A DNA stretch of 64,000 nt. It comes from a bacterium. Lineage in GTDB: Bacteria; Patescibacteriota; Microgenomatia; Woykebacterales; RBG-16-39-9b. The notes under the pieces were generated by a model. It did no database searches and was not told the DNA's origin. It was given only the letters and a program-made list of their open reading frames with translations. Where the stretch lies: the NCBI GenBank assembly GCA_030704665.1, contig JAUYID010000009.1:163-64162 (forward strand), read 5' to 3'. Both the position numbers and the translations under genes were made by a program. The first letter of the stretch is position 1. Every line of letters starts with the position of its first letter. Shown here piece after piece: positions 14,385-55,939 of the stretch.

Positions 14385-15245
14385 TTAGCTTAAAAGCTTC
14401 AGGGTAGCGTGGTAGCTTTCTTTAATCACTTTTTCAGTTTTTTCGGGAGTGAAATCATAAGGGGAGAGCTCAAAACCACTCCTTGGTTCGATGGGGATGA
14501 TTTTTATTCTTGGGTAGAGTGCTTTTATTAATTCAACTTCATAACGCGTCGTCTGGTACTGGGCAATATCGCGACTGTCAATAATATTTTCCAAAAAGTT
14601 TTTTGGTTCTCTTTTTGTTTCGCCGGCATAGCCTGCGTTAACGGCATAAATTGTTCCGCACGTCTTTCGGGCCAGCTCGAAGAGAGGTAAATTGTCGGAA
14701 ACTCCTCCGTCAATATAAACTTTTTCTCCTATTCTAACTGGCTGAAAAATTCCCGGCGTGGCTGAGGAGGCAAGCAAGGCAGGAATGATCGGTCCTTGCC
14801 GAAACCAACTGTCGCTGCCAGTTTCAATGTTGGTAGCCCCGAGAGCTAAAGGAACCTTCAACTCAGAAAAATCTTTAAACGGTAGCCTTTCTTCCAAAAA
14901 TTTCTTGATTTTACCAGAGTCCCCTAAACTTTTTGTCCCAAAGCCGTGGGCCAAGAGCCTCGATAGCACCTGCCAAGGTGAAAGTCCAATGAAAGCGCGG
15001 TTGATAAAGGAAAAAATTACTTTTAAATCAGTAAAAGAGTTGTTCGTGAATGGGTCAAAAGCGTGGAAGGCAGCCACAAAAGCTCCGGCAGAAACCCCCA
15101 CGACGTGGGTTGGAGTTATTTTCTTTTCCAGAAAGGCGCGTAACACTCCAATGTGGACTACCCCACGGTTGCCTCCACCAGAATAAGAAATCCCGACAAT
15201 TTCTTCTCTGCAAAGGTTTTGATCAAGCTCGTGGATCTGCTTCAC
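14385..15245 (-). CDS. Patatin-like phospholipase
   Basis: GGGNRG oxyanion motif, GVSAGA (GxSxG) and DGGVSDNLP (catalytic Asp). Confidence 0.85.
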   Translation of the reverse strand: MKQIHELDQNLCREEIVGISYSGGGNRGVVHIGVLRAFLEKKITPTHVVGVSAGAFVAAFHAFDPFTNNSFTDLKVIFSFINRAFIGLSPWQVLSRLLAHGFGTKSLGDSGKIKKFLEERLPFKDFSELKVPLALGATNIETGSDSWFRQGPIIPALLASSATPGIFQPVRIGEKVYIDGGVSDNLPLFELARKTCGTIYAVNAGYAGETKREPKNFLENIIDSRDIAQYQTTRYEVELIKALYPRIKIIPIEPRSGFELSPYDFTPEKTEKVIKESYHATLKLLS

Positions 15246-22357: not shown

Positions 22358-22358
22358 A

Positions 22359-24925: not shown

Positions 24926-24963
24926 GTTCTAGCACAGGTATGGTAAGATTTTAATTAAAGACC

Positions 24964-26073
24964 ATGAAGAAATATTTAACTGCCGCTGCCACTGCCATTA
25001 CTCTAGTTGTTGCCTTGTTCCTTCTCTCACGTTTAGTCTTACCCCTATTTACTCCAAAAAACGGTTTTTTACAGGTTTCTACTTCTTTACCCGCAAAAAT
25101 TTCCCTTGACAACAAGAACCTGGGGGAAAGCCCCTTCCGCGGCGAGAATCTGAAAACCGGCACACACCGTTTGCAACTTGAAGCGAAATTTTCAACCGCC
25201 AGTTCGAAAGTTGTTGGTGGTAGAAAGGTAAGCTGGACGGGAAATATCAGTCTCTATAGCAATGTTTTATCAGTCGTGAACTTTGACTTTGGCCCGACCG
25301 CGGCTTTCAATGCCTCAGAAATTCTCACCTTGCGTAAGGGCTCCACCTCAATCTCAGTTGTCAGCCAACCGGAAAACACCGAAGTTAGTTTGGATGGTTC
25401 AAGTCTAGGAGCAACTCCGCTCGTCAAAAGCATAAAATCAGGGGTACATCGACTCAAACTCAGCAAGGAAAACTACTTGGAGCGCCAAATCGATATCAAC
25501 GTAGCCGACGGTTTCCAAACTGTCATTCAGGTTGATCTCGCCCTAAACCCGTTACCAAAAGCTATCTCCAAACTCTCAACCAAGGAAAGTACCACTTTTT
25601 ACGACCTGTCTACCCTGGAGTCGTCTCTCTTCGAAAAACCTGATCAGTGGGCAGAGGCAGCCTGGTTTTTTCAAGAAAAGACTAATTCTCTAGAAACAAA
25701 GTTCGACGCCTTCATCGATCGGGCTGGGACGGTTTATTACTATGATCAGGCCAGTTTCAAGGCTAGTTTAAAAGCGAAAAAGAGTCTGAACGTAGGTTAC
25801 TTGGGAAATAAGGCGGACAAGGTTTTGTCCAGTCAAGCCAAAGCTAACTGGGAAAAACTCTTTCCGACAACGAAGGTTGCTCAAATTCAGGTTCTTAGCA
25901 CACCAACCGGAATTCTGAACGTGCGTTCTGGGCCCAGCCAAAGCGAGCGGATTCTGACAAAAATTAAACCTGGAGAAAAATACCCCTTACTTGGTGAGCA
26001 AGAGGGCTGGTACAAAATTAAAGTCGGCTCAATTACTGGTTGGGTCTCGGCCCAATACGCTAAAAAACTTTGA
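24964..26073 (+). CDS. Secreted/anchored protein with PEGA-like beta domains and a C-terminal bacterial SH3 domain
   Basis: ISVVSQPENTEVSLDGSSLGATP (PEGA-like) and GWYKIKVGSITGWVSAQY (SH3b). Confidence 0.45.
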   Translation: MKKYLTAAATAITLVVALFLLSRLVLPLFTPKNGFLQVSTSLPAKISLDNKNLGESPFRGENLKTGTHRLQLEAKFSTASSKVVGGRKVSWTGNISLYSNVLSVVNFDFGPTAAFNASEILTLRKGSTSISVVSQPENTEVSLDGSSLGATPLVKSIKSGVHRLKLSKENYLERQIDINVADGFQTVIQVDLALNPLPKAISKLSTKESTTFYDLSTLESSLFEKPDQWAEAAWFFQEKTNSLETKFDAFIDRAGTVYYYDQASFKASLKAKKSLNVGYLGNKADKVLSSQAKANWEKLFPTTKVAQIQVLSTPTGILNVRSGPSQSERILTKIKPGEKYPLLGEQEGWYKIKVGSITGWVSAQYAKKL

Positions 26074-26605
26074 GAAATTTTTTAAACTCCTCCAAGGCTT
26101 GGCGGCGGTGGGAAACTTGGTTTTTTGCTTCTGGACCCATTTCAGCGTAAGTCAGCTCCCCTCCCTCTGGAATAAAAACTGGATCCCAACCCCAGCCACC
26201 AGGTTTTTCTTCTTTGGCTAGCCTACCTGCCACTTTACCCAAAAAGGTGTGAATTTTTTGCCCATCATGAAAAGCAAAGACAGCTTGAGCGCTGGCAGCT
26301 CGATTCTCCACTCCTTCCATCATTTGAAGAAGCAGCTGGTTGCCACCAGCGGCCAAAACGTGTTTGACCAAAGGACCGGGGAAGCCTTTCCACTGATCTA
26401 GAAAAAGCCCAGCGTCTTCAACAATGAGGGGTTTTCCTGTCTGCTCAAAGGCTAATTTTGCTTTTTTCTGCGCAATTTCAACTAAATCTAAACTTTGAAC
26501 TTCGTCAATTTCTAGGCTTACACTCTCAACCGGAATTCCCAAAATCATCGCTACTTCTTTAGCTTTGTTGGGATTCCCAGTAACAAAAAAAAGTTTGTTC
26601 AACAT
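26060..26605 (-). CDS. rdgB: Non-canonical purine NTP pyrophosphatase (RdgB/HAM1)
   Basis: FVTGNPNKAKE N-terminal motif and overall ITPase pattern. Confidence 0.85.
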   Translation of the reverse strand: MLNKLFFVTGNPNKAKEVAMILGIPVESVSLEIDEVQSLDLVEIAQKKAKLAFEQTGKPLIVEDAGLFLDQWKGFPGPLVKHVLAAGGNQLLLQMMEGVENRAASAQAVFAFHDGQKIHTFLGKVAGRLAKEEKPGGWGWDPVFIPEGGELTYAEMGPEAKNQVSHRRQALEEFKKFLKVF

Positions 26606-26679
26606 TTATTGTAATTTACCAGCTTTCAAAAACTTGTGCTAGGGACTAGCATCGGATATAATCTGAGCCTAAGTTCCAA

Positions 26680-26754
26680 GGCGAGGTAGCCAAGTGGTAA
26701 GGCAAAGGTCTGCAAAACCTTTATACGCCGGTTCGAATCCGGTCCTCGCCTCCA
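26680..26754 (+). tRNA. tRNA-Cys (GCA), CCA encoded
   Basis: Cloverleaf read by eye: acceptor GGCGAGG/CCTCGCC, anticodon stem AAGGT/ACCTT with loop CTGCAAA (anticodon GCA), T-arm GCCGGTTCGAATCCGGT, 3-prime TCCA. Upstream TTGTGC-N17-TATAAT promoter. Confidence 0.8.
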
Positions 26755-26756
26755 AA

Positions 26757-26895
26757 GTAAGGGTTCGTTTTCCCGAAGGGAAACAATGTTTTAACATTCT
26801 TCCCGCTCGCGCCTCCATGTCCGGTTCGTTCCCGCGAAGTTTTAACGAAGCGGGACTGGATGCTTTAGCATCCGCCTCCGGTCCTCGCCTCCAAA
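26757..26895 (+). repeat. GC-rich structured segment ending in a 16-nt direct repeat of the tRNA-Cys 3-prime end (ccggtcctcgcctcca)
   Basis: Exact 16-nt repeat at 26739-26754 and 26880-26895. Intervening hairpins TTCCCgaaGGGAA and GGATGCtttaGCATCC. Confidence 0.5.
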
Positions 26896-26990
26896 AACTT
26901 GACTTAAGCAAGCTTTTTTGCTAGAATTAGTTTGTAATTCTCTCAACGCCGAGAGAATTTTTCTTTTTTGGCCCCGATTATCGGGGTTTT

Positions 26991-27701
26991 ATGTTGGGAA
27001 CTATTGTTCGTACTTCTCTGGTCAGTGCCAGAGAAAGACAACTTCATAGTCTGCCCCGACTCAATTCTCACCCTTACGTCCTCTCTACCACTGGCTATGA
27101 GACTTTAGCGGTGGTCGTGGACGCAGCAGCGGTGATCCTCCTTCTTTCAAGGCTGGGCCGCGCTGTGGGAAAAATTGCCAGCCAAGCGCTTCCGGCCATC
27201 CTTCTCACGGTTTTTACTGTTCTAGGCATGATCTTTCTTAAAACTGACTCGCCAGTCAGTCCAAGTATTGCTGCTCAAAGCAAAGACCTTCCGAAAATTG
27301 AACAGTTTGTTAGCGCAGTCGCCACCAACAATTTCCAAAAGCCTCTTGCCGGCTTGGTTTCGCAACACTATTGGTGGGGCCACCCGGGAACTGATATCCG
27401 TGCTCCTTATAGTACAAAAATTCGTCCAATCGAATCAGGGACAGTCATCGAAACCTCTTTTGAGGCCGGGGGCTATGGTTTCCAAATTCTTGTCCGACAT
27501 AAAGATGGCTTTGTTTCCCGTTATGCCCATTTGTCCAAAATCCTTGTCAAAGTTGGGGACAAAATAACAAAATTTAAGGTAATCGGTACTGTCGGTACTT
27601 CCGGAGACGCTACCGGACCACACCTTCATTTGGAACTCACACGCAAAGGAGAGACTCTTGACGCTGAGAAATACCTGCCTAACTACCAATTTAGCCCCTA
27701 A
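26991..27701 (+). CDS. M23-family (LytM-like) peptidoglycan endopeptidase with N-terminal membrane anchor
   Basis: HYWWGHPGTDI, GTVGTSGDATGPHLHLE (HxH), which are M23 zinc-ligand motifs. Confidence 0.8.
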   Translation: MLGTIVRTSLVSARERQLHSLPRLNSHPYVLSTTGYETLAVVVDAAAVILLLSRLGRAVGKIASQALPAILLTVFTVLGMIFLKTDSPVSPSIAAQSKDLPKIEQFVSAVATNNFQKPLAGLVSQHYWWGHPGTDIRAPYSTKIRPIESGTVIETSFEAGGYGFQILVRHKDGFVSRYAHLSKILVKVGDKITKFKVIGTVGTSGDATGPHLHLELTRKGETLDAEKYLPNYQFSP

Positions 27702-27714
27702 ACGAACAAGGCGA

Positions 27715-27738
27715 ACTTTTCGTGTGCACGAAAAAGTC
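27715..27738. terminator. Bidirectional terminator hairpin between the M23 peptidase and the RT gene
   Basis: Perfect inverted repeat ACTTTTCGTG-tg-CACGAAAAAGT. Confidence 0.5.
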
Positions 27739-27746
27739 CGCCCCGA

Positions 27747-28847
27747 TCAACTCTCCCACAACCTCAGCTGGTGACCTTCTGGGTAGATGGTTTCCAACTG
27801 TTTCTCAATTGTTTCTCCTTCCCCCAACTTTCCAATGATCTGGCGAGGTAGGTCCTCACCATAAATCTGTCTCGGCAAGGAAAGCAGCCCGGCTGCTCTG
27901 GCGACATCGCCTTTGGTCAAAGCAGTGTGAAGCGCTCCTCGCAGCCGACGTCTTGTCCGCTTCGGCAATCTCAACTCACCGTCGCGAATACTCACCCCCA
28001 AAACCTGGAGATTGGTATGGCCACTGATCTCCATAAGCTTGGTTTTGCGCTCGTTCAACTCGAAGGGAGTCTTCTCGTTGACGATTCGGCAGAGGGTGCG
28101 AACTTCAAGCTCAGTAATGGGACCATCTGCCGAGATCGCAATATTGTCCGCATAGCGGGTGTAGATCGCTCCCATCTTGTCAGCAAAGATCGCCAGACGC
28201 CGGTCCAGGTCACGGCAAACGAAATTGAAGAGAACCGGCGAGCTTGGTGCTCCCTGGGGCAAACGTGGCTCTAGTCCCAAACCTGGCACTAGAGTGGTGC
28301 AAAGGCGAGTGATCGCCAAAGCAAGCCACTTACCGATCTTGACTGCTCCAACCTCCTGCTCCAAGAGCTCTTCGAGCAACCACTTTCTGGTTACACTGCT
28401 GAAAGCGTCTTTGAGATCCAAGCTGAGCAGGTAGCGTGAGTGTCGGTGAGCCTCCACTGCGGTCAGCATTTTTCGATCCCGTACAAAACCGTGACACGCC
28501 CTGTGCACCGGCAGACCGGAGAGCAGGTTGCGTAGCATTCGTCGCTGCAGCCAGCGCAGCCGGGGGTCGGGAATCATCAGGATCCGAAAGTCCCCTGACC
28601 TCTTCCTGATCAGTCGCATGTCGTAGGACTCATCAATTCCACTTTCAACAATTGCCTGCAGTTGAGCCGGCCAAACGTGAAAGAGCAGGGCGAGGTAGCG
28701 GTAGGGGTTAAAGGACCGCCGAATCCGAAAAGGATCCAGCTGTGTCCATTCCCGCCAATTTCCAACCCCGTAAGAATCGTAAACGTCATCCTCAAGTTCG
28801 CCGAAACGAAACTCTTCTCCCGCCTCTTCCCAGGCAATATCAAGCAT
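27747..28847 (-). CDS. Retron-type reverse transcriptase (366 aa), GC-rich
   Basis: RT domains: RILMIPDP (domain 1), HRACHGFVRDRK (domain 2), LDLKDAFSSV (domain 3), LPQGAPSSPVLFN (domain 4, QGxxxSP, not the DGR variant), YTRYADNIAIS (domain 5; YADN rather than YADD), NERKTKLM (domain 7), and a VTG-like LQVLGVSI. AAGGAG SD 6 nt upstream of the ATG. Confidence 0.7.
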   Translation of the reverse strand: MLDIAWEEAGEEFRFGELEDDVYDSYGVGNWREWTQLDPFRIRRSFNPYRYLALLFHVWPAQLQAIVESGIDESYDMRLIRKRSGDFRILMIPDPRLRWLQRRMLRNLLSGLPVHRACHGFVRDRKMLTAVEAHRHSRYLLSLDLKDAFSSVTRKWLLEELLEQEVGAVKIGKWLALAITRLCTTLVPGLGLEPRLPQGAPSSPVLFNFVCRDLDRRLAIFADKMGAIYTRYADNIAISADGPITELEVRTLCRIVNEKTPFELNERKTKLMEISGHTNLQVLGVSIRDGELRLPKRTRRRLRGALHTALTKGDVARAAGLLSLPRQIYGEDLPRQIIGKLGEGETIEKQLETIYPEGHQLRLWES

Positions 28848-28859
28848 GATCGTCTCCTT

Positions 28860-29050
28860 ATTGGGTCAGGGGAGGTTCAGTAAGAGCTTCACTAAACCTC
28901 CCCTTCTTCCGGCAGCTGGGTTATCTCTGCTTCTGGGCTCCGTACTCGGCGAGCCGGGCCCCCACTAATCACCTCTCACCAGGCAGCTACTGCCGGTGCG
29001 GGTCAGCCCTGAGATCAGGAGTCAAACCCTTTAAATTAACCCAGCTATGA
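28860..29050 (-). ncRNA. Candidate retron msr-msd non-coding RNA upstream of the RT
   Basis: 10-bp inverted repeats AGCTGGGTTA (29046-29037 on minus) and TAACCCAGCT (28923-28914), as in retron a1/a2. Internal stems GGGGAGGTT-17nt-AACCTCCCC, GGCTCgccgagtacgGAGCC, CCGGCAGtagCTGCCtGG. TGgTATATA extended -10 upstream. Confidence 0.5.
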
Positions 29051-29077
29051 CCTATATACCAGTTTCCCGGCAAAAGA

Positions 29078-29102
29078 AAAAGGGCCCGAAAGCCCTTTTC
29101 TC
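29078..29102. terminator. Intrinsic terminator downstream of groEL
   Basis: aaaAAGGGCccgaaaGCCCTTttct, palindromic with T/A runs either side. Confidence 0.6.
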
Positions 29103-29128
29103 TTTATCTTTAATCTGTTGATCTTAGT

Positions 29129-31077
<1,949 letters not shown>

Positions 31078-31252
31078 TTTTTTATTTACCTCCTAATTTA
31101 ACTAACGAGTAATTGTTGACTTAGAAAATGAAGGAAATCAAGGAGCAGGAAATTGGTAACTCCCTCAAGACCCGTCACTTTCTTTATCACTCGGGCAATT
31201 GTGCTGCTAAATTTTAGGGAAGTTGGCTTGGTTTGTCAAGCGCTAGATCAAG

Positions 31253-32614
31253 TTAATTCGACTGGGGAACTCCGGGCGGGGCTAAAGCAGACGAAAGGCC
31301 GAATTTTTCAAGGGTCGGTTCAATTTCTTTGGCAATCGTAATGATACTTCCCAACTGGTCGTCTGAGGTGGCACTCAGATCAAGCCATTTCCGAAAGCTT
31401 TCGACAATCTTTCCATTGAGAAGATCCTCGCCTGTATCCGAATTCAAATACCAAGTTTTGGCAAAAGGTGCTTGTTTTACGTAAGGGGCTAAAAGAGGGT
31501 CGCCGGTCAGCTCGGCAGCCATCGCCACCCGAGGGTAAGCTCGACCAAGACCACGAATTTTTGTTTCAAGAATAAAGATTTTTTTTAGTGCACTCTCTTC
31601 AGAAAGAAACTTAGCGAATTTCCAAGCCTCAAGCTGATTCTCACCCGCGGCGTTGACGGCGTTGGCCCAATAACTTCCCCAGCTGACCGGATCAGACTCA
31701 ACTACTTGGGGGACCGGGGCAACACCAAAACTAAGTTTGACACCTTTATCTTTGGCAATTTCGGAAATTTCGGCTAGTTTGTAGGCTGGAAAAAAGGCCA
31801 TGGCGACCTTACCCTGCGCAAAAGCTTCAAGCGAAGGTGGTAAGATCGCTTCCCAAACCTTGTATTTGGAAGCAAAGTTTAAATAAACCAGAAGAGCGTC
31901 TGCTCCTAAATTCCTACCATCGAGGGAGGAGTTGGAAGCAAGGAAGTTCTTTTTATCTTTGATGAAGCTAACTTTATTCTGCAAAAGCAACTGTCCAACA
32001 ATCTCAGAGAAATAGTCAACATTTTTACTACTTCCCAGAGCGACTCCGGCGGTTTTGATTTTGCCGCGATCATCGTAATTGGTAATGACAGAGGCCATGT
32101 TAACCAGGGAATCAAGGTCTTTTGGAGGAGAGTCAAAACCTTTGGCTTTGAGTAAAGTTTTGTTGTAAACCAAGGCCAGACCATCAATTTCCAAAGGGAT
32201 TCCTCGATAAGAACCGTTTGACTTTAAACTTTCTTTGACGAGAGGGTAAAAGGTTTTTTCAAACTCAGAGCTCGAATAAATTTCATCAGGAAGACTGGCC
32301 AGGTGACTGCCTAGCACAGGCAGCCAACCGCTGTGGGACCAAAAGAGATCTGGCCCATTCTTTTCGCCCAGGGCTTTGTTTAGGAAAGAAAAATAGCTGC
32401 TTGCATTTTTCTGCTCGTATTCGATGATGATGTTGGGGTTTTTCTTTTGGTACTCTTCCTTGAGAGGGTTAATCGCTTCCGGATCCCAAAGACCGAGATA
32501 GTGAAGAACGACCGGTCCGGGAGCCTTTTTTCGGGAGAAAAACAGGACTAAGACAATACTGAGAACCAGAAAAAGAACAAGTCCAACAATGATGAAAGGC
32601 AGAAAGCGCTTCAT
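31253..32614 (-). CDS. ABC transporter extracellular solute-binding protein (family 1, sugar-type), membrane-anchored
   Basis: N-terminal TM anchor and general SBP_bac_1 composition. No permease genes seen nearby. Confidence 0.5.
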   Translation of the reverse strand: MKRFLPFIIVGLVLFLVLSIVLVLFFSRKKAPGPVVLHYLGLWDPEAINPLKEEYQKKNPNIIIEYEQKNASSYFSFLNKALGEKNGPDLFWSHSGWLPVLGSHLASLPDEIYSSSEFEKTFYPLVKESLKSNGSYRGIPLEIDGLALVYNKTLLKAKGFDSPPKDLDSLVNMASVITNYDDRGKIKTAGVALGSSKNVDYFSEIVGQLLLQNKVSFIKDKKNFLASNSSLDGRNLGADALLVYLNFASKYKVWEAILPPSLEAFAQGKVAMAFFPAYKLAEISEIAKDKGVKLSFGVAPVPQVVESDPVSWGSYWANAVNAAGENQLEAWKFAKFLSEESALKKIFILETKIRGLGRAYPRVAMAAELTGDPLLAPYVKQAPFAKTWYLNSDTGEDLLNGKIVESFRKWLDLSATSDDQLGSIITIAKEIEPTLEKFGLSSALAPPGVPQSN

Positions 32615-33573: not shown

Positions 33574-34152
33574 ATGTTAAAGAAAAATCCCAACCAACGT
33601 GTTGGTGTTTTCGTTGATGTCCAAAATATGTACTACTCGGCCAAAAACCTTTATGAAGGTCAGCGGGTCAATTTCAGCCAGATTTTGGAAAAGGCCACCG
33701 CTGGTCGACAAATGATTCGTGCTTTTGCTTACGTCATTAAAGCTTCAATGCCTGAGGAGCAGACCTTTTTTGATGCTCTCGAAAAGGCCGGTTTTGAAGT
33801 CAAAAGTAAAGATGTTCAAATTTTCCCGGGTGGGGTAAAAAAAGGTGATTGGGACGTCGGAATTGCGATCGATATGATTCGCCTCGCCCCAAGACTAGAT
33901 GTTCTAGTTTTGGTCTCTGGTGATGGGGACTACATTAACCTAGTCGAATATCTCCAAAACCAAGGCTACCGAGTCGAGTCGATGAGTTTTGGCAAATCTA
34001 CTTCTGGGAAACTGATCGAGCAAATCGATGAGTTCACGGATATGGATGAAAATTATCAACAGTATCTTTTCCCGATGAAAAGCTCAAAAGTCAGACGCAG
34101 TTTCCGACCCAAGTCTGATCCTGGCTCAACTCCGATCTTGCCCGAACTTTAG
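33574..34152 (+). CDS. NYN/LabA-like domain protein (predicted RNase/limkain-type)
   Basis: VGVFVDVQN...LVLVSGDGDY motif. Confidence 0.65.
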   Translation: MLKKNPNQRVGVFVDVQNMYYSAKNLYEGQRVNFSQILEKATAGRQMIRAFAYVIKASMPEEQTFFDALEKAGFEVKSKDVQIFPGGVKKGDWDVGIAIDMIRLAPRLDVLVLVSGDGDYINLVEYLQNQGYRVESMSFGKSTSGKLIEQIDEFTDMDENYQQYLFPMKSSKVRRSFRPKSDPGSTPILPEL

Positions 34153-34154
34153 GT

Positions 34155-46685: not shown

Positions 46686-48059
46686 ATGGATCAACACCGT
46701 GTTTGGGAATCAGTTCTCGCCGAACTGAGGATAAATCTTTCTAGTGCCAACTATCAAACTTGGTTCAGGGGGAAGACGCAAATTCTTGCCATCAATGAGC
46801 GCCTAGTAGAAATTGGCTGCCAAAGCTCTTTCGTTCGGGACTGGCTTGAACAGAGATATTACGAGCAAATCAAGGTTTCCCTGGAAAGATTACTCGAGAA
46901 AAACGTCAATTTAGTTTTCAGTGTCAGCCCTCTGACTGATGTGGTGGCAGTCAAAGGCAAAGCAAAACTTTCTGATTCTGAACCGCCTCTTTTTACCTCG
47001 AACAAAAACTTGGACAAAGAAGAGCAGGAACGGGTAGCTCAGGCTGGGCTCAACCCCAATTATACTTTTGCAAACTTCGTCGTGGGCGGCAGCAACCAGC
47101 TTGCCTATGCAGTGGCGGAGGCGATCAGCAAAAAACCAGGGTCGGAATACAACCCTTATTTTATCTACGGCGGGGTCGGGGTCGGCAAGACCCACTTGAT
47201 GCAGGCAATCGGTGGTGCAGTTTTGGCAACCAAGCCTGGCCTTAGAGTTTTTTACTGCACAGCAGAACGATTCACCAACGAGTTGATTGAGTCGATTCAA
47301 ATGCGGAAAACCGCCGCTTTCCGAAATCGTTATCGCAGTATTGACCTTTTGATGATTGATGATGTCCAGTTCATCGCGGGAAGAGAAAGCACTCAGGAAG
47401 AGTTTTTCCACACCTTTAACGCGCTCTATTCAAACGGCAAGCAAGTCGTTCTGACTTCTGACCGACCTCCCGCGGAAATAAAAAAGCTTGAAGAGCGGCT
47501 GCGCAGCCGCTTTGAAGGGGGAATGATTTCTGACATCCAAAGCCCTGATGTTGACTTGAAAGAAGCGATTCTGCTCTCCAAGTGCCGCCTCCAAAACCAG
47601 GAGATTCCCGCAGAAGTCCTCCACTTTCTGGCGTTGGCCAGCGCGGGTAGTGTTCGGGATCTTGAGGGTTGTTTGGTCCGGCTAATTACCCGCTCAAAAA
47701 TGAGCGGGGAAGCTTACAGTCTCGAACTAGCGAAAAAAATTGTTGGCGACAAGATTGTTGAGCGCCGCCCCAACTCGGCGCGGAAGGTAGTCGAGCTGGT
47801 AGCTAGCTTCTTCGACGTCAAACAAGGGGATCTCAAAGGCTCAAGCCGGCAAGCACGTTTTGTTTTACCGCGACAGATTGCCATGTATCTTCTGCGCAAG
47901 GATCTAGGGTTGCCTTTAGAAAAGGTTGCTGAAATCCTAGGGAAAAAAGACCACACGACCGTAATTCACGGTGTGGACAAAGTAGAAAAGAATGTGGTTA
48001 ACTCAGAGATGTTAGCTTCTTGGCTGCGCCAGCTCCGCGAACAACTCTCTGACGGCTAA
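46686..48059 (+). CDS. dnaA: Chromosomal replication initiator DnaA
   Basis: Walker A GGVGVGKTHL, box VII, C-terminal DNA-binding helix HTTVIHG. Confidence 0.95.
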   Translation: MDQHRVWESVLAELRINLSSANYQTWFRGKTQILAINERLVEIGCQSSFVRDWLEQRYYEQIKVSLERLLEKNVNLVFSVSPLTDVVAVKGKAKLSDSEPPLFTSNKNLDKEEQERVAQAGLNPNYTFANFVVGGSNQLAYAVAEAISKKPGSEYNPYFIYGGVGVGKTHLMQAIGGAVLATKPGLRVFYCTAERFTNELIESIQMRKTAAFRNRYRSIDLLMIDDVQFIAGRESTQEEFFHTFNALYSNGKQVVLTSDRPPAEIKKLEERLRSRFEGGMISDIQSPDVDLKEAILLSKCRLQNQEIPAEVLHFLALASAGSVRDLEGCLVRLITRSKMSGEAYSLELAKKIVGDKIVERRPNSARKVVELVASFFDVKQGDLKGSSRQARFVLPRQIAMYLLRKDLGLPLEKVAEILGKKDHTTVIHGVDKVEKNVVNSEMLASWLRQLREQLSDG

Positions 48060-48238
48060 GAGACTTTTGTACTGTTTCTGTCCACAAAACTGTTCACAAA
48101 AAGCGTCTTTGTTTTGCACACCAATCCGGCTAAGGCTAGCAAGCGTCTGGTAGCACGCCTGCTTGCTGGGTTTTTTCAACAAAACCACACTAACTAATAT
48201 AACTACTAATTAAGTTGTTTAATAATTATTAATAGTAG
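48060..48238. promoter_or_regulatory. Candidate oriC (DnaA-box-like motifs plus AT-rich unwinding element) between dnaA and dnaN
   Basis: TGTCCACAA and TGTTCACAA (near TTATCCACA consensus) at about 48080-48100. Very AT-rich taactaatataactactaattaagttgtttaataattattaatag. Confidence 0.4.
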
Positions 48239-49345
48239 ATGAAAACCACCATTTTAAAAGAAGATTTGGCAAAAGCGCTCAACTTGGTTTCTCGAATTGT
48301 TTCTCCCAGACCAAGCTTGCCAGTGTTAAATAACGTTTTGCTCTCAGTAACCAAAGAGGGTGTTACTTTATCAGCCACCAACCTAGAAACCTCAATAAAA
48401 GTTAAAGCTCCGGCCAAAACAAGTTTGGAGGGATCAACCACAGTTCCGGCCAAGGTCTTCGGAGAGTTTATCAATAGTCTAAAGGAAGAAAAGCTGGACC
48501 TGGTTTTGGAAAAGGAGAACCTTGAGGTAGTCGGTGAAGCCACCAAAGCACAACTGGCGACAATTAATCCTTTGGAGTTTCCCGCCTTGCCGGAAATAAG
48601 GAAAGAAGAAACCGAAGTGTTGGAAAGCGCCGAGTTGGTTGAGGCAATTAACCAGGTGGTTTTTGCTGCCTCTGTTGATGAAGCCAGACCGATCCTGACT
48701 GGTGTTTTGCTCCGAGAAGAAAAGGGAGGCTTACTTTTTGTTGCCACCGATGGCTATCGGTTAGCAAAAAAGGAAACGAAAATTAAAACTAACTTAAAGG
48801 AGATGGTCGTACCGGCTAAGTCTTTACTAGAAGTTGCCAAGCTCATTACCGAGATGGGTGAGGAGGAAATCAGGTTGGGGCTTTTGGGAGAGAAAAACCA
48901 AGTGGTCTTTGTGGGCAACAACTTCGAGCTCTCTACCCGAGTTTTGGATGGGGCTTTTCCCAACTTCGAGCAAATTGTTCCCAAAAAGCTTATTCTGGAA
49001 ACAAAGCTGGACCGGGAGGGCCTCAGCGAGGCGGTCCGCCAAACAGCGGTTCTAGCCAAGGATTTAGGTAGTGTAGTCCAGATCGAAGCAAAACCGGGTA
49101 AGGAAATAGTCTTGAGCGCCAAGACCGCACAGCTTGGTCAAGCTACTACCAGACTGAGCGGCGAGGTCAGCGGGGAGGCAGTAAGCGTGGCCTTAAACTC
49201 AAGGTTTTTGTTGGAGGGTCTGTCCAACTTTAAAGCAAAGGAGATAAGCTTTGACCTTAGTGGAGCAACTAGCCCGGCGCTGCTTTCCGACAAAAAAGAC
49301 CCAAGCTTTATCTACATTGTCATGCCGGTTCGGGTCCAAGGTTAA
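48239..49345 (+). CDS. dnaN: DNA polymerase III beta sliding clamp
   Basis: 368 aa, position after dnaA, typical three-domain beta-clamp pattern. Confidence 0.9.
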   Translation: MKTTILKEDLAKALNLVSRIVSPRPSLPVLNNVLLSVTKEGVTLSATNLETSIKVKAPAKTSLEGSTTVPAKVFGEFINSLKEEKLDLVLEKENLEVVGEATKAQLATINPLEFPALPEIRKEETEVLESAELVEAINQVVFAASVDEARPILTGVLLREEKGGLLFVATDGYRLAKKETKIKTNLKEMVVPAKSLLEVAKLITEMGEEEIRLGLLGEKNQVVFVGNNFELSTRVLDGAFPNFEQIVPKKLILETKLDREGLSEAVRQTAVLAKDLGSVVQIEAKPGKEIVLSAKTAQLGQATTRLSGEVSGEAVSVALNSRFLLEGLSNFKAKEISFDLSGATSPALLSDKKDPSFIYIVMPVRVQG

Positions 49346-50439
49346 TGTTGGCCAGTCTTGAAATAACCAACTTCCGTAATCTCAAAAACTCTAAACTGGA
49401 GTTTGCCAAAACCTTAAACATTTTTTATGGGGACAACGCTCAGGGAAAAACCAATCTCCTCGAGGCGATTTTCCTAATTAGCACGGGTAAGTCCTTCAAA
49501 TCCGAAGTTGATCGGGAACTGATCGCCTGGGGACAAACCTCAGCCCGAGTCGTTGCTCAAGCACCACCTCTAGAGATAGAACTAACGATAAATGAGACAA
49601 ACAAAAGACTGCTCGTCAACCGCCAGAGCCGGCGTCTGATTGAGCTAGTGGGCGAGTTTTTAGTGGTTTTGTTTGCTCCCGAGGATTTAAGTCTGGTCTA
49701 CGGCGCCCCAAGTCAGAGAAGAGCTTGGATCAACAGCCTGATCTCTCGTGTCGATCGCAAGTACCTCTTTAATTTAGGTAAGTTTAACCAGGTAATCAAA
49801 AACCGCAATCGGGTCCTTCTCTCGCTAAACCAAGGAGGCAGCCCGGATCTAGGAGTTTGGGATGAACAGTTTATCAAACTCTCAGTCGATCTTTGGGTCA
49901 GCCGGCAAGAATATCTCGCTAAGGTGAACAGCTTTTTAAAACAAATTGCCCCGAAGCTCGGAGTCAGCAAAATTACCGTTGAGTACCATCCGCAACTTGC
50001 AGTCAAAGACGCAAAATCGTTAAAGGCAGTTTTGACCAAAGAGCTCGAAAAACGAAGAAGAGAGGAGGTAGCCCGCGCGCAGACTGTTTTGGGTCCCCAC
50101 CGCGACGACTTTAAACTCATTTTTGAACAAATTGAGAGCGAGAAGGTTTTGACCAAGGATGTTTCTGTCTTTGGTTCCCGCGGTGAGCAGAGAACCGGAG
50201 TGCTCAGCCTGAAACTAGCAGAAATTGAGCTGATTGAAATGATCAAAGGTAAAAGACCGACGTTACTTTTGGATGACGTTTTAAGTGAATTTGACAAAAA
50301 ACACCGAGAAATGATTCAAGGGTTGCTTTATCGCCAGCAAAGTTTTATTACCACTACCGCGACCGACCTGCTCGATAAAAAACTTTTGAGCAAGGCAAAA
50401 CTCTTTCAGCTTAAAACTGGGCAAGTTGAGGCTGGCTAA
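49345..50439 (+). CDS. recF: DNA replication and repair protein RecF
   Basis: Walker A GDNAQGKTNLLEAI, signature motif and Walker B LLLDDV. Confidence 0.9.
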   Translation: MLASLEITNFRNLKNSKLEFAKTLNIFYGDNAQGKTNLLEAIFLISTGKSFKSEVDRELIAWGQTSARVVAQAPPLEIELTINETNKRLLVNRQSRRLIELVGEFLVVLFAPEDLSLVYGAPSQRRAWINSLISRVDRKYLFNLGKFNQVIKNRNRVLLSLNQGGSPDLGVWDEQFIKLSVDLWVSRQEYLAKVNSFLKQIAPKLGVSKITVEYHPQLAVKDAKSLKAVLTKELEKRRREEVARAQTVLGPHRDDFKLIFEQIESEKVLTKDVSVFGSRGEQRTGVLSLKLAEIELIEMIKGKRPTLLLDDVLSEFDKKHREMIQGLLYRQQSFITTTATDLLDKKLLSKAKLFQLKTGQVEAG

Positions 50440-52508
50440 CGCTCCAGGGGGTGGTAGGGCACCTTTTGTTTGGTGTTGAGGCTGACCTGGGTGGTCGTCT
50501 CTGATTTGAGTTCGACCGGAGCTGGTTTGGCCTCTTCCGGTTTTGGTTCTCGGGCCGGTGGCGCCTCAACTTCCTTTGGAGCCAAGGGTGTTTCTTGCCT
50601 CTCCTCCGCTTTGACTGGGAGCGCTGGTCCCGTTTCTCTAGCCAGTTTGGGGGCGGGGGGTATCTCCCCGCGTTCCAGTTTTTCCAGCAGGGCTGGGTCC
50701 TCTCGTCCCAGACGACGCAGTTTTTCTAGCTCCTTTGGGTTGGAGGTGATCAGAACGTGCTCGTGTTCGGCAGCCTGGACGCGGATAGCGACATGGTTTG
50801 CGCCAGCAAAGAAAAGACCCTCCCCGATATCAGCGCTGAGAAGCAGATTCTTCTCCCCCTCGGAAAGGTAGAAAACGGCCGAGACTTCGTTTATCGAAGC
50901 CGGTGACTGTTTGAGAAGAATTTGGATTGAGGAGTTGGTTACGATCGCCTTACCGTAATCAGTGTTGAGGAAATCTTCCACGTCTTGGGTGATGGTTGTC
51001 AAACCAAGGAAATACTTACGGGCTCTTTTAGCAATCGAGTACATGAAAGAAGCAGAATCAGGATGTTTCATCAGGTACCAAGCTTCATCAACGACGAGAA
51101 TTCTGCGCTTGCGGTCCTTTTTGATCCGAGTCCAAATGTAGTCAAGAATGATAAACATGGCAATCGGCCGCAGTTCGTCCTCCAGATCCCGTATCGAGAA
51201 GACCGTGAAAGTGTTTTTAATATCAACTGTGCTTTGTTGATCAAAAATTCCAGAAAGAGAACCTTTGATGAATTTTTCGAGCCTTTCCGCCATGGATTTG
51301 GCTTCGGGTTCGGCCATGTTTTGCAGAACCGAGTAAAGGTCTTCCATGACCGGAGATTCACTTGTTTGGGTGGTTGGATCTGGAGTGATTCCTTTCTGTT
51401 TGTAAGTAAGAATCAAGGCCCGGTCAAGGACAGCGTCTTCGGTTGAAGTGAGTTTCCCCAGAATGACCCGAAAAAGGGAATGCAGGGAAAGAATCTTAAG
51501 CCCTAGTTCGTTTTCGCCTTCCTCGTAAACTCCGGAGAGGTCGAAGGGGTTAATTTTAGCCTCAGTTTCTGTAGCAAACTTGATGTACTCCCCACCAATG
51601 GCTTTACAGAGCTCGCCATACTCTTCTTCTGGGTCGATAACGATGACTTCAGTGCCAAACATTAAACTGCGCAGAGTTTCCAGCTTGACCATGTAGCTTT
51701 TCCCCGCCCCAGACTTGGCAAAAACGACGCTATTAGCGTTTTCCAAAGTGAAACGATCAAAAATAATTAAAGAGCCGTTGTGCTCATTGATACCGTACAT
51801 GATTCCTTCGTTGGCAGTTAGCTCTGAAGAAGTAAAGGGAAAGGTTGTTGCCAAGCTCGTGGTGTCCATGTTGCGGGTAACAAAAAGCTTGTCACTAAAA
51901 GTGGGTAAGGTAGCCCGAAAGCCATCTTCTTGTTGAAGAGTAGCGTGTTTGGTGACCACCAGCAAAGAGCCTAGGGTCGACTCGACCTGCTTGGTGATGG
52001 AGTTGAGCTCCTCCAGAGATTCAGCTGGGATGGTGATATAAAAAGACATTTGAAAAAAGCGTTCAATACCCGCCGCTAGTTGCTCCTGCAGAGATTGGGC
52101 GTCTTCCAAGGCAACACGAACAGCCGGATCAACCACCCGACCAGCTTCCAGGTCACTTTGAACAGTTGCCTCCATCTCGGCAATTTTGTGGCGCAGGTCG
52201 TCAAGGATCCCCTTTGATTCTACGGGGTAGCAGTAAAAACAAAGGTCCAGGGTGTGGTCAAAGTTAATAATTGGGGCAAGCCAATTAGCCCCGACAAAAC
52301 GAGGGTAGCCGGAAACAAAGAGAGTTCGAAAGTAAAGATCCCCTAGTTTAAGGTTGTCAAAATCAACTTCAAGCGCCGGTGGAGCGATAATATCTTTAAC
52401 ATCGACCATCCCCGCTCCCAAAGTCTTAGAAATTTTGTTCCTCGTTTTCGCAAGCTCTATTTCCTGAGGAGAAGGAGTTTTTTTCTTCGGGAGGAGAGAA
52501 AATTTCAT
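50436..52508 (-). CDS. virB4: VirB4/TrbE/CagE-type type IV secretion ATPase (ATPase portion)
   Basis: Walker A FAKSGAGKS, Walker B ILVVDEAW, overall VirB4 C-terminal organisation. Confidence 0.75.
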   Translation of the reverse strand: MKFSLLPKKKTPSPQEIELAKTRNKISKTLGAGMVDVKDIIAPPALEVDFDNLKLGDLYFRTLFVSGYPRFVGANWLAPIINFDHTLDLCFYCYPVESKGILDDLRHKIAEMEATVQSDLEAGRVVDPAVRVALEDAQSLQEQLAAGIERFFQMSFYITIPAESLEELNSITKQVESTLGSLLVVTKHATLQQEDGFRATLPTFSDKLFVTRNMDTTSLATTFPFTSSELTANEGIMYGINEHNGSLIIFDRFTLENANSVVFAKSGAGKSYMVKLETLRSLMFGTEVIVIDPEEEYGELCKAIGGEYIKFATETEAKINPFDLSGVYEEGENELGLKILSLHSLFRVILGKLTSTEDAVLDRALILTYKQKGITPDPTTQTSESPVMEDLYSVLQNMAEPEAKSMAERLEKFIKGSLSGIFDQQSTVDIKNTFTVFSIRDLEDELRPIAMFIILDYIWTRIKKDRKRRILVVDEAWYLMKHPDSASFMYSIAKRARKYFLGLTTITQDVEDFLNTDYGKAIVTNSSIQILLKQSPASINEVSAVFYLSEGEKNLLLSADIGEGLFFAGANHVAIRVQAAEHEHVLITSNPKELEKLRRLGREDPALLEKLERGEIPPAPKLARETGPALPVKAEERQETPLAPKEVEAPPAREPKPEEAKPAPVELKSETTTQVSLNTKQKVPYHPLER

Positions 52509-53236
52509 TGCTGCTCCCCCCCTTTTGCTTGGTTGATGACCGGTTCGAGAGCGGGTTGAACAATGGGGGTGGTGTATTCTTGGGTTGAAAGAGCTGCTTT
52601 TTGTTCTCGAGCCACTTCTGGGTTGTAAAGATCGTAGAAAAGCTCGACCAGCTCTTCCGTCGCGAGCTGTTTGCCTTTGATCCCAATACGGTTGAGTTGT
52701 TTGACGAGATGAGCGATTTTTGGGGCTAAGTTTATCTTAGCTTTTTCGAGAGTACTCCACTTGTTCCCCACCACAGTTTTTTTTGGGAAAAGAGCTGGTG
52801 GTTTGATTTGCGATAAATCTCCTGAGAAATAGGGGACTACTACATAAAAACGCTTGTCGAGAACTTGATTGCGAGAAACCAGATCGCGGACAAACCGAGA
52901 GTAAAGGTCAATCTGTCCCGCCAAACGCTCATTTTTGGTTTCTGCTTTGGCTCCATCCAAGAGTTTGAGGTAGTTGGAAATATCCATCCTTTTGGACCGC
53001 ACAATGATCTGAATTGGAAAGGTCAGTGAGTTCAAAAGAGCTGCATAAGCAAAGATCATTGCGTCTTGCTCGGATTCGCTTAAAAGGTCAAAATTGACCG
53101 CGTTGGTCTGAAGGATAGCCGCTGCTCCTCCGTTTTTCAAAATGATCAGATCATCGCGAATGTCTTCGACATCGAGGTGTTCTTGAGTTGTCGGAAGTCT
53201 TTTTGCTTTGGACATTTTAAATTGCCTTGATTTCAA
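52505..53236 (-). CDS. VirB4 N-terminal-domain-like protein (possible split VirB4 or separate T4SS component)
   Basis: ATGA start/stop overlap with the downstream ATPase ORF. Combined length about 930 aa, matching full-length VirB4. Confidence 0.4.
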   Translation of the reverse strand: MKSRQFKMSKAKRLPTTQEHLDVEDIRDDLIILKNGGAAAILQTNAVNFDLLSESEQDAMIFAYAALLNSLTFPIQIIVRSKRMDISNYLKLLDGAKAETKNERLAGQIDLYSRFVRDLVSRNQVLDKRFYVVVPYFSGDLSQIKPPALFPKKTVVGNKWSTLEKAKINLAPKIAHLVKQLNRIGIKGKQLATEELVELFYDLYNPEVAREQKAALSTQEYTTPIVQPALEPVINQAKGGEQQ

Positions 53237-55334
53237 TTGGCTTCATGATTTCCCCGCCTAATTGAACTTGGGTAATGTCGAATTCCAAACTATCTTTTTC
53301 AAGCTCAATATTGTAAGTCCCGTTGGGTAGAGGAGTGGAGATCACAAATTGACCAATTTTGTTGGATTTTAGAGCCCGAACCGGCTCCCCCTTCTCATCT
53401 TTGATAATCATGACTGCTCCAGAAACGAGTAAACCCCCCTTGTCGCGAACAATCCCATTGACGACATTGGGGAAGGAAACTTTGGGCGGAATCATTTTTC
53501 CAAAAGCCGGCTGGGCAGCTACAACATTCCTCCCCCGCGCTTTCTTGGCCCTTTCCTTCTCGGCGAGAGCCTTTACTTCCTCTGCAATTTTGGCTTTCTG
53601 AACTACCAATTCTTTTTGTCTTTCGGTCGCCGCTTCCCCTTCGTTTCTGGCCTTTAGCTCACTTTCCCGAATTTTTTTGTCGATCTGCTCGTTGAGAAGG
53701 TGAACTTCGGCCGCAATTCTCTGTTTTTCACCTTGATATTGAAGCCCCTCGTATTGAACCATGATATCTGCTTGGTGCTCCAAATTTTTTAAAGTATCAG
53801 ACAACTTGTCCCGCTCCCCTTCGGAGAGCTGCTCTCGGCCCAGTTTGGCAAGTTTGCCTTCTGCCACAATGGTATCTTTTTGAATTTCTTGGCGATCGGC
53901 GCGGTGGGCCAAAACTTTCGGATCGACCGGAGTTTTAACGGGTTCGGCAATTTGGGCCGCCTGTTTTTCTGAAATTATTACCGGGTTGTTGATGACAAGA
54001 GGTGGCTGGGTGGGGCCCATTTTACTCATATCGAGGTTCTTGGATGTTTCTTCCAGGTTGCCCGGGAGTTTGATTACTTCTTGACCAGTCTTTTCTTCAG
54101 AAGCCTCGAGTTTAACTTCTTTTGGCTCGGTTTGTTTTTCTTCAACCACTTTAGGAGGGCTTGGAGGTACTAGTTGCGGGTTTTCCCCGCTTGGTTTTTC
54201 GACAGCCTCAGTTTCTAGGGCCGTTTTGGTAGGTTGTGGGCTTTCGGGGGCTTTAACGGCGGGTTCTTTGACCGCCTCAACACTTGTACTAGCTAGCGCG
54301 CTTACTGGGTTCTGTTCAGCTACTTCGGGAAGTAATTCTTTTTGAGCCGGGATATTTATTGGGGTATAAGAAGCCTTGGTCAGCTCAGAGGGTTTTTTTG
54401 AAAGCTCAATCAGTTTCTCGGCCAAAGGCGGTAGTTTGGCTAGGGACTCAAGTGGCGAGCCCTTGGTTTCGGTCGAGGGCCCGAGCGGACGCACTTCAGA
54501 GACCACAACCTCCTTGGGCTCAAATTTAATTTTTTGACTTGGAGGGGTCGGCTCTGCCTTGAGAGTTGGCGGCAGGCTAATTTGTTTGTTAGGTTGGGGC
54601 AACTCGCGCCCTTCTTCTTTGGGGGGTGCTGCTGGGAGAGGGTTTGGTGTCTTGGTTTCGGGTTGAGCGGAAGCGCCCAGCCCCGCAGTTGGGTTTTTGG
54701 TCTCCTCGAGCCGTGGTTCAGGCGTTTTTGTTGCCGGCAAGCTACCAACAACTGGCTTGGGAGCTGGCTGGTTGACGGCGACGGTCTTGGCGGAAACAGG
54801 AAGAGCCTGAGAAGCTGCTTGAGCCACGGCCTGTTTTTGGTTTCGTTGACTCAAAAGACTGCGGGCAGCCTGGGTAGTTTTGGTTAGCTCGGAAAGCAGT
54901 TTGCTGCGGTCAGCCAAAGGGGAAATCTGACTTTTGAAGCTTGGGGCCGGGACGCCCAAGTAGATAGGAGCTGTTTGCGGCTCGAGTAGGGGCCTGGCAG
55001 CGGCCTGAACTTGGGAACCAATTCCAGCCTGCAAGCTCTCCGGAAACTCAAAGACACGCTCACCGCGAACGGGCAAAATTGCTTGGCCATTAAGAGCAAC
55101 AGGACGAAGGTAACGAGGTTGGCTATTGTTGACACCTCTGACATAGACTAGCTTCCGACCCATCTTGACGGTGGCGACGGGGTTGAAGCCAACTTCGGAG
55201 GCAATTTTTGGTTTATCCTCTTTAGTCTCACTGATAGTCCGCGCCTTTTCGGTCGGTGAAAAACGATGCAGGGTGGGGATGTGAACAAAGGTACGCAGCT
55301 TTGCCGCAGCTTTGGTCAGAACCTCATTGCTCAT
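53217..55334 (-). CDS. Pro/Thr/Lys-rich T4SS-associated protein with coiled coil and a C-terminal carboxypeptidase-regulatory-like beta domain
   Basis: Long low-complexity P/T/K-rich spacer, coiled-coil KERAKKARG region, and C-terminal VISTPLPNGTYNIELEKD beta-sandwich-like end. Confidence 0.4.
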   Translation of the reverse strand: MSNEVLTKAAAKLRTFVHIPTLHRFSPTEKARTISETKEDKPKIASEVGFNPVATVKMGRKLVYVRGVNNSQPRYLRPVALNGQAILPVRGERVFEFPESLQAGIGSQVQAAARPLLEPQTAPIYLGVPAPSFKSQISPLADRSKLLSELTKTTQAARSLLSQRNQKQAVAQAASQALPVSAKTVAVNQPAPKPVVGSLPATKTPEPRLEETKNPTAGLGASAQPETKTPNPLPAAPPKEEGRELPQPNKQISLPPTLKAEPTPPSQKIKFEPKEVVVSEVRPLGPSTETKGSPLESLAKLPPLAEKLIELSKKPSELTKASYTPINIPAQKELLPEVAEQNPVSALASTSVEAVKEPAVKAPESPQPTKTALETEAVEKPSGENPQLVPPSPPKVVEEKQTEPKEVKLEASEEKTGQEVIKLPGNLEETSKNLDMSKMGPTQPPLVINNPVIISEKQAAQIAEPVKTPVDPKVLAHRADRQEIQKDTIVAEGKLAKLGREQLSEGERDKLSDTLKNLEHQADIMVQYEGLQYQGEKQRIAAEVHLLNEQIDKKIRESELKARNEGEAATERQKELVVQKAKIAEEVKALAEKERAKKARGRNVVAAQPAFGKMIPPKVSFPNVVNGIVRDKGGLLVSGAVMIIKDEKGEPVRALKSNKIGQFVISTPLPNGTYNIELEKDSLEFDITQVQLGGEIMKPIEIKAI

Positions 55335-55939
55335 TTAGAAGCCTCCAAATCATCTGCGCCAAGAGGGGGTAAAACTTGTCCTGGTGGGGAAGATTTAATT
55401 TCTGAGGTCATCTGGGCGACTTGTTGGCTGAGCTGCCCTAGTCTTTTTTCCTCTTCCACATCAAGAGCCGATTTGGCTCCGAGGTGGTGGTGAGAAACCA
55501 AATACTGGTTAAGTTTGGCCCTGTCGGAGTGGGCAATTGGCTTTGGTCCTTGCTGATGTTGGAGATAGATGGAAAACTCAGGAGCTAAGAAGCCGAGCTC
55601 AACTGGCTCTTTGCGCCAAACTCGCTGGGTTGGAGTATAGACGGAGCGGACAAAAGCAACAAGCCAACGATCGAAAGGAATGTCGTTTATCGGCAAAAAA
55701 GCAAGCGCCAAGCCCAGAGGACCGATTAGAAAGATGAGTAAAAAGCGAACTATTATATACAGAGGTATGAGATAAATAACAAAGCAGAGAATACCCGCAG
55801 CCGCCAAATAACCAAACTGACGAATGGTCAGAAAACCAACTAATTTAAATTCAAACCCAGTTATGTTCTGCGGGACAGGATGAGACTGCATACTTTTTTG
55901 TTTAAAACTCGGGAAGCGAGTTTTTCCTTGCTTTGTCAC
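55331..55939 (-). CDS. VirB3/PrgI-like small membrane T4SS protein
   Basis: Two adjacent TM helices (FGYLAAAGILCFVIYLIPLYIIVRFLLIFLIGPLGLALAF). Immediately upstream of the other T4SS genes. Confidence 0.4.
   Translation of the reverse strand: MTKQGKTRFPSFKQKSMQSHPVPQNITGFEFKLVGFLTIRQFGYLAAAGILCFVIYLIPLYIIVRFLLIFLIGPLGLALAFLPINDIPFDRWLVAFVRSVYTPTQRVWRKEPVELGFLAPEFSIYLQHQQGPKPIAHSDRAKLNQYLVSHHHLGAKSALDVEEEKRLGQLSQQVAQMTSEIKSSPPGQVLPPLGADDLEASK

Follow-up and report, generated by a model that had tools for sequence, protein, structure and literature searches.

The window, by which we mean the whole 64,000-nt stretch of contig JAUYID010000009.1 (assembly GCA_030704665.1) analyzed here and whose positions serve as coordinates throughout, carries on its minus strand a genuine retron-type cassette of 1.3 kb that is made up of an RNA and a reverse transcriptase (RT) and contains no toxin gene. 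We interpret it as a stand-alone retron that was acquired horizontally, has its own −10 box, and encodes an msr/msd-type non-coding RNA (ncRNA) and an RT on the same transcript. The RT would belong to an effector-less clade in which the catalytic motif reads YxDN and whose named members come from the candidate phyla radiation (CPR). We put the probability of this reading, taken as a whole, at roughly 0.65.

Retrons are now regarded as three-part toxin/antitoxin defense systems. What a retron without an effector does is a question raised in the paper that classified them (PMC7736814), and the lineage described here provides a minimal (1.3 kb) natural test set for it. The lineage turns up repeatedly in CPR genomes of very small size, which probably have little DNA to spare. 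It keeps its RNA architecture, and the relatives keep the priming G, yet it always alters the second catalytic aspartate. Should the enzyme prove active, what is known of retron RT chemistry would extend to YxDN, and compact new editors might be gained; should it prove inactive, the lineage would be a case of an RT domesticated as an RNA-binding protein.

Read along the minus strand, the locus runs from groES-groEL through an intrinsic terminator and a ~200-nt non-coding leader to the 366-aa open reading frame (ORF) of the RT (27747..28847). The leader holds a structured RNA bounded by the inverted repeats a1 and a2. This contiguity of a retron-clade RT and its ncRNA bears out the retron-like module that an earlier note on this DNA had proposed.

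A retron-type reverse transcriptase with a YxDN motif

Profiles, motifs and predicted fold all place the protein in the retron clade. It matches Pfam RVT_1 (1e-22), and the best 25 PADLOC models among the matches listed are all retron RTs (99-176 bits). In NCBIfam, the retron St85 model scores 151 bits, compared with 62 for group II intron RT and 35 for Drt2. When the RT family profile was searched against the sequences of the Protein Data Bank (PDB), the Ec86 RT came out on top (154 bits), followed by those of Ec67 (137), Ec83 (127), Ec78 (~112) and Eco8 (75), with group II RTs at ≤57 bits and Drt2 at 33. The AlphaFold model (mean predicted local distance difference test score 87, predicted template modeling score 0.83) is confident over approximately residues 45-340 and of low confidence for residues 1-43 and the C-terminal tail, and it contains no extra folded domain. 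A Foldseek search of the PDB with this model as query places retron RTs at each of ranks 1 to 18 (target-normalized TM-score ≤0.80) and an RT of a diversity-generating retroelement (DGR) at rank 42. The enzyme is a retron-clade RT: it matches retron RTs far better than the enzymes of group II introns, DGRs or defense-associated RT systems (DRTs).

We weighed an RT of one of these other classes, including a DRT2-like enzyme of rolling-circle gene synthesis, in view of the report that ~80% of CPR RTs are DGR enzymes (PMC8632793) and because DRT2 likewise consists of just an RT and an ncRNA. Each candidate was rejected. The group II intron model TIGR04416, with a cutoff of 300 bits, yields just 62, and Rfam finds no intron RNA in 26500-29300 (E ≤ 10). 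No direct repeat of ≥35 nt that could form a DGR template/variable pair is present in 20000-37000. The DRT2 model NF041746 reaches 35 bits against a cutoff of 390, and the a1-a2 unit, when tripled, contains stops in all six frames in seven loci. We consider the chance that the RT belongs to one of these classes next to nil.

Along the polypeptide, region X (TAVEAH, residues 129-134) precedes motif A (DLKDAF, 144-149), the QGAPSSP motif (198-204), motif C (YADN, 232-235) and the VLG of region Y (282-284). The earlier note had credited the protein with a full set of RT motifs; the strings it quoted, LPQGAPSSPVLFN, NERKTKLM and LQVLGVSI, are indeed present, but the set is not complete, as motif C reads YADN rather than YxDD. 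Motif C aside, the catalytic and deoxynucleoside triphosphate (dNTP)-binding residues are retained: D144, D234, K268, QGxxxSP and a phenylalanine at +5 from D144, which we take to be the steric-gate position by analogy with Y115 of HIV-1 RT. Region X reads NAxxH in most clade members, of which the window's TAVEAH keeps the histidine and loses the asparagine. Region Y reads (L/P)G(V/L) in the clade, with its glycine retained. Further departures from the relatives are IRK for IPK, GDFR for GGxR and DRKMLTAVEAH for GRSIxTNAxxH. Altogether, the window RT breaks two of 39 clade-conserved columns and is not an outlier.

The altered motif C is a property of the lineage. Close homologues of the RT number only a handful (40-48% identity), and all of them have Y[ASV]DN, not YxDD. 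The broader string [RK][YFW]xDN occurs in 29 of the 350 retron-like proteins that we fetched, and 23 of these, the window RT included, fall into one clade in a rough neighbor-joining tree of the 335 best-scoring RT domains that carries no support values. Across the 23 members, Y[AVSFCG]DN is invariant. The clade's RTs are 283-371 aa long and have no fused domain, and the members with a named host come from Candidatus Woykebacteria, Candidatus Berkelbacteria and a "Patescibacteria group bacterium". Against the PADLOC retron RT models, the scores of clade members lie at 125-190 bits and single out no model, and none scores like a true member, as do an Arthrobacter RT (561/518 bits for RT_other/RT_outgroup) and a myxobacterial RT (368 bits for RT_XIII). 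A 2019 retron review gives YADD and variants such as YCDD only (PMC6868368), and the literature that we consulted on retrons in CPR and on RTs with YADN yielded nothing relevant. Judged from its sequences, the CPR-associated YxDN clade appears to be a small, previously undescribed RT lineage and would represent a variant of the already known stand-alone retrons.

Two distant clade members, P0042 (L286, 6001-6975) and P0116 (L287, 1453-2382), lie two genes away from dnaX and directly beside it, respectively. This hints at a dnaX-linked sub-lineage that has held its place and may have been inherited there vertically, whereas the window's sub-lineage occurs in varied contexts. The best profile matches after clade members and their fragments are P0123, P0124, P0126 and P0128, which carry two retron-like RT domains in tandem, with YxDD; one protein of this group, of 1381 aa, also has an N-terminal Ser/Thr kinase domain.

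The msr/msd-type RNA and its priming position

The leader (228 nt) folds better than shuffled sequence (z = −4.6), and its architecture recurs. We read the DNA that precedes the RT gene at eight related loci (L001, L003, L124, L204, L286, L287, L292 and L294). In all eight, a −10-like box is followed by a1, a G immediately after it, two hairpins and a variable third hairpin; then come a G directly before a2, a long GC-rich hairpin, a Shine-Dalgarno sequence and the RT start codon. When folded separately, each of seven a1-a2 units gave a four-way junction, as a retron transcript should. When the four closest loci were aligned, 96% of the cells of the consensus structure were paired, compared with 24-51% when the partners were slid, and 13 pairs carried double changes, compared with 0-2 in the slid controls. 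The a1/a2 stem by itself shows compensatory double changes at four of its ten pairs in relatives.

In the window, the inverted repeat is exactly as the earlier note described it: AGCTGGGTTA / TAACCCAGCT, 10 bp long, at 28914-28923 / 29037-29046 with 113 nt between the arms. On the minus strand, a1 (AGCUGGGUUA, 29037..29046) forms the 5' arm of the closing stem and a2 (UAACCCAGCU, 28914..28923), assigned from the inverted repeat and its covariation, the 3' arm. The note had also left to be seen whether the repeats are conserved in homologous loci; the same topology is found in nine loci, the window included, with compensatory changes.

Six nucleotides upstream of a1 lies the putative −10-like box, TATATA preceded by TGG (29053..29058, minus strand). 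A TATAAAG-like block occupies this position in all four close loci, and L286 and L294 have a full TTGACA-N17-TATAxT there. A scan for strict consensus promoters called none in the window.

Between a1 and a2, msr hairpin 1 (29000..29029) forms in both the minimum free energy and the centroid folds, and every relative has a hairpin at its position. Directly next to it, msr hairpin 2 (GCACCGGCAG-UAG-CUGCCUGGUG, 28977..28999) is nearly invariant and constitutes the most conserved block of the RNA. Seven of its ten pairs are invariant and two show compensatory changes in the four-locus alignment, with CGCACCnnCAG...CUGnnUGGUG as the consensus. By analogy with Ec86 and Ec73, where region Y recognizes the msr (PMC6868368), msr hairpin 2 is likely the element that the RT recognizes and docks on. 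The remaining segment (28925..28976) is the presumed msd, or template region, and includes a GC-rich hairpin. This third hairpin forms in seven of seven independent folds and differs in sequence between loci; we placed the extent and stop of the msd by inference. All three elements are on the minus strand, as are those that follow.

A ribosome-binding site (RBS; AAGGAG, 28854..28859), read from the sequence, lies 6 nt before the ATG of the RT. Between a2 and this site, the earlier note had seen a GC-rich stem of 9 bp. The hairpin is real; its arms, however, are 14 nt long (28868..28904) and 93% complementary. All eight relatives have a hairpin of different sequence at the equivalent position, and the hairpin has no U-tract. 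It lies outside the canonical msr/msd scheme and might affect RNA processing, 3'-end stability or translation of the RT.

The sequence range of this RNA family is narrow. A covariance model of the a1-a2 unit, searched against 1.04 Mb, recovered only its four training sequences: it missed the distant clade members L204, L286, L287 and L292, found nothing near 79 other retron-like RT loci and detected no second copy in the window. No Rfam family matches the cassette RNA, the sole match being a tRNA at 26680-26751. The hairpin-2 motif CCGCACCNNCAGN{3,4}CTGNNTGGTG has at least 120 matches in metagenomes; none of those listed encodes a relative of the RT, and we therefore regard them as chance matches.

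Upon close examination of the inner end of the a1/a2 stem, we noticed that the window departs from its relatives at the very nucleotide from which a retron is expected to prime. Retron transcripts carry a priming G and an opposing G (PMC7736814, PMC6868368). All eight relatives conform to this pattern (CUA-G ... G-UAG), whereas the window reads UUA-A ... A-UAA, with an A at the expected priming, or branching, position (29036, minus strand) and another at the opposing position (28924, minus strand). The branching G that the earlier note had hoped to locate next to a1 is thus an A. On the a2 side, the context changes from ...AAG-UAGCCC... in relatives to ...AGA-UAACCC in the window. Both A residues are confirmed in a second, independent assembly (Logan L205), which is identical to the window across 5.2 kb. 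The pair beside the A/A site has undergone a compensatory C-G to U-A change, which argues that the a1/a2 stem itself stayed under constraint. A 10-nt insertion follows a1 in the window copy.

With A at both sites, canonical G-primed synthesis is doubtful in the window genome, and with it the synthesis of msDNA (multicopy single-stranded DNA): by analogy with known retrons, canonical priming may be altered (A-primed) or lost. If it is lost, the window copy would be an inactive relic of the same lineage whose ORF has not yet degraded. Such a relic would explain A/A where eight of eight relatives have G/G, the missing asparagine of region X together with the changes of IPK/GGxR/GRS to IRK/GDFR/DRK, and the insertion after a1, and it fits the conservation of the priming guanosine in validated retrons (PMC6868368, PMC8632793). 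It does not fit as well with an intact 366-aa ORF, an intact RBS and intact helices throughout, nor with the compensatory change next to the A/A site and an RT that breaks so few clade-conserved columns. Moreover, Retron-Sen1 (Se72) is functional without an apparent priming G (PMC6868368). We regard a relic as possible, although unlikely.

In a bolder reading, CPR would have a two-component retron lineage of their own, in which a YxDN RT and its msDNA act with no dedicated effector, and in which the window RT co-evolved with its RNA to prime from A, an A·A replacing the G·G mismatch. Attractive as it is, we hold this version to be rather improbable. If true, it would provide the first natural retron with a non-G branch nucleotide. 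The A/A variant also amounts to a natural experiment on how strictly the branching G is required.

By analogy with Ec86 and other validated retrons, the cassette would operate as follows, with transcription start, docking site, priming, msDNA length and any biological role all inferred. The RNA would fold with a1 paired to a2, and the RT would then dock on the near-invariant msr hairpin 2. In the relatives, the G at the end of a1 would offer the RT its 2'-OH to prime DNA synthesis. Copying of ~50-60 nt of the msd would produce an RT-RNA-msDNA particle, and any output would have to act through the particle itself or through an unlinked partner.

Neighborhood, origin and comparison with known retrons

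The genes around the RT reveal no partner. In the window, groEL lies upstream and the M23 peptidase gene downstream of the RT. The corresponding neighbors are NUDIX and Exo_endo_phos in L001; a gene without assignment and a glycerate-kinase-like gene in L124; SpoU and a gene with a class II tRNA-synthetase anticodon-binding domain (HGTP_anticodon) in L204; a 107-aa and a 115-aa gene in L286; DnaX and a 400-aa gene in L287; PGI and a 255-aa gene in L292; a gene without assignment and a holin-like gene in L294; and DUF1801 and an HD-domain gene on the contig of P0140, while on the contig of P0004 a 213-aa gene lies downstream. No neighbor recurs across these ten loci, and in eight of the ten the downstream gene is convergent with the RT. 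Among the 40 other window ORFs of ≥180 aa, none matches a PADLOC retron effector model; the generic matches are UvrD-type helicases, RmuC, TatD, RecF, a patatin, a NYN nuclease and a VirB4-like ATPase. The cassette has neither the type-specific protein nor the fused domain that distinguishes retron types I-XIII. The earlier note, which saw no recognizable effector, was right in this, with no conserved neighbor, no extra domain and no effector-model match to be found; where it spoke of a missing effector, however, the absence is a trait of the whole lineage and not a local loss.

Two window genes belong to domain types that occur in defense systems. One, for a patatin-like phospholipase (14385..15245, minus strand), is 12.5 kb away from the RT gene; the other, for a NYN-domain nuclease (33574..34152, plus strand), is 4.7 kb away. 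Neither is linked to the cassette or recurrent in related loci.

The note had further suggested, as one of its options, that the M23 peptidase (26991..27701, plus strand), 45 bp downstream of the RT gene, is co-opted as the retron's effector. Adjacency is all that favors this idea. The gene is convergent and therefore not co-transcribed with the RT; two Woykebacteria-type genomes show the same UbiA / PEGA-SH3 / M23 synteny without an RT at that place; the M23 protein has no PADLOC match; and at the nine other loci no M23 gene flanks the RT. A co-opted M23 effector is highly improbable, and groEL (29129..30757, minus strand) and the M23 peptidase gene are bystanders.

The intrinsic terminator of groEL (29078..29099, minus strand) lies outside the cassette and sets its left-hand limit. 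Where the RT and M23 genes converge, an inverted-repeat search found between their stop codons an 8-bp hairpin (27717..27734), which possibly serves as a two-way terminator and marks the right-hand limit. The cassette has a GC content of 54.8%, compared with 46.2% in the remaining window, in agreement with the foreign composition that the earlier note had noticed; the genome, with 46% GC, is no more than mildly AT-rich and not the AT-rich one that the note described. In four genomes, the cassette has 51-55% GC and its flanks 40-46%, an excess of 9-13 points that suggests transfer. The window host shares the UbiA / PEGA-SH3 / M23 synteny with Woykebacteria-type genomes. Compared with genomes that hold M23 homologues, gene order is kept upstream of M23 and broken downstream, where a histidine kinase takes the place of groEL; the boundaries of an insertion are not definable. 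We found no integrase or flanking direct repeats at the cassette. A scan of IMG/VR with the family profile gave no close relative (≤35% identity) and no sign of phage carriage.

Of the features that define retrons in general, the window cassette has the RT match and the a1/a2-bounded ncRNA, and it lacks the priming G and the YxDD that most retron RTs carry as YADD. A further defining feature of retrons is msDNA linked to the msr through a 2'-5' bond. Stand-alone (msr-msd)-RT cassettes are known from the Retron-Eco5/Ec107 branch of RT clade 2 and from the Actinobacteria-restricted clade 11 (Mestre et al. 2020, PMC7736814), for which the authors left open whether effectors act in trans or the cassettes serve another function. 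Like these, the window's lineage is taxon-restricted and combines an a1/a2-bounded ncRNA with a retron-clade RT that follows it, with no effector or fused domain. By score, however, the window RT falls into neither clade, with only 126 bits against RT_Ec107-like and 176/173 bits against RT_other/RT_outgroup, where the Arthrobacter RT reaches 561/518. It also lacks their long N-terminal extension, has YxDN where Ec107 has YCDD, and belongs to a lineage whose named hosts are CPR.

Among solved retron RTs, that of Retron-Eco1 (Ec86, type II-A3) scores best. The two share RT fold and length class (154 bits; TM-score 0.75, normalized to the Ec86 chain), and in both the RT is immediately preceded by an ncRNA that combines a1/a2 with msr hairpins and an msd hairpin. 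By contrast, Ec86 has a nucleoside deoxyribosyltransferase (NDT) effector, YADD and a priming G in UAGC, whereas the window element has no effector, YADN and an A at the priming position, as well as the extra conserved hairpin between a2 and the RBS. Retron-Sen1 (Se72, type V), which works without the canonical G, offers a loose precedent for the window copy. It belongs to RT clade 3 and has a cold-shock-domain partner; in the window's lineage, the G is the rule and only the window genome departs from it.

Several points weigh against the stand-alone retron that we favor. The tree that delimits the clade is rough, and the RNA is readable in just nine loci. The case for a horizontal origin is one of composition alone, and no empty insertion site was found via the M23 homologues. 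The window copy has neither the priming G nor the opposing G and reads TAVEAH for NAxxH. Finally, an asparagine replaces the second catalytic aspartate throughout the clade, which no validated retron RT in the 2019 review shows (PMC6868368); polymerase activity is therefore unproven.

The last of these points leads to a rival view of the whole clade, in which its members no longer polymerize DNA and the RT has become an RNA-binding subunit of a ribonucleoprotein with another, possibly housekeeping, role in CPR. Besides the invariance of the asparagine across a diverse clade, the lack of an effector agrees with this view, as does the location of the loci among housekeeping genes, where the two members near dnaX suggest a stable position. 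Domestication was raised by Mestre et al. for taxon-restricted effector-less clades (PMC7736814). It is countered by the retention of the other catalytic and dNTP-binding residues listed above, and by the priming and opposing G in all eight relatives, which make sense only if priming persists. Moreover, some viral RNA polymerases work with GDN in place of GDD, and the GC-rich cassettes of four genomes speak for transfer rather than for ancient vertical inheritance. We judge a non-polymerizing clade to be quite unlikely and retain the stand-alone retron as our interpretation.

Other features of the window

Three further regions drew our attention. Between the NYN-domain gene and a 341-aa gene, ~950 nt (34153-35102) contain no convincing ORF and have no Rfam match at E ≤ 1. 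Their GC content rises to 57%, compared with ~45% around them, and they fold better than shuffled sequence on both strands (z = −5.9 on the plus and −8.0 on the minus strand, 20 shuffles each). This region may be a large structured RNA or a piece of foreign DNA.

A cluster of four genes on the minus strand (50436..55939) looks like a type IV secretion-like apparatus. It encodes a VirB4/TraG-type P-loop ATPase (690 aa), a PrgI-family protein (202 aa) and two proteins of 243 and 705 aa that have no significant Pfam domain.

On the plus strand, 46686..50439 hold three ORFs in a row, which encode 457, 368 and 364 aa. The first two have no PADLOC match, and the third has a RecF/SMC N-terminal domain. 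From gene lengths and order, the three are probably dnaA-dnaN-recF, and the window therefore probably spans the replication origin region.

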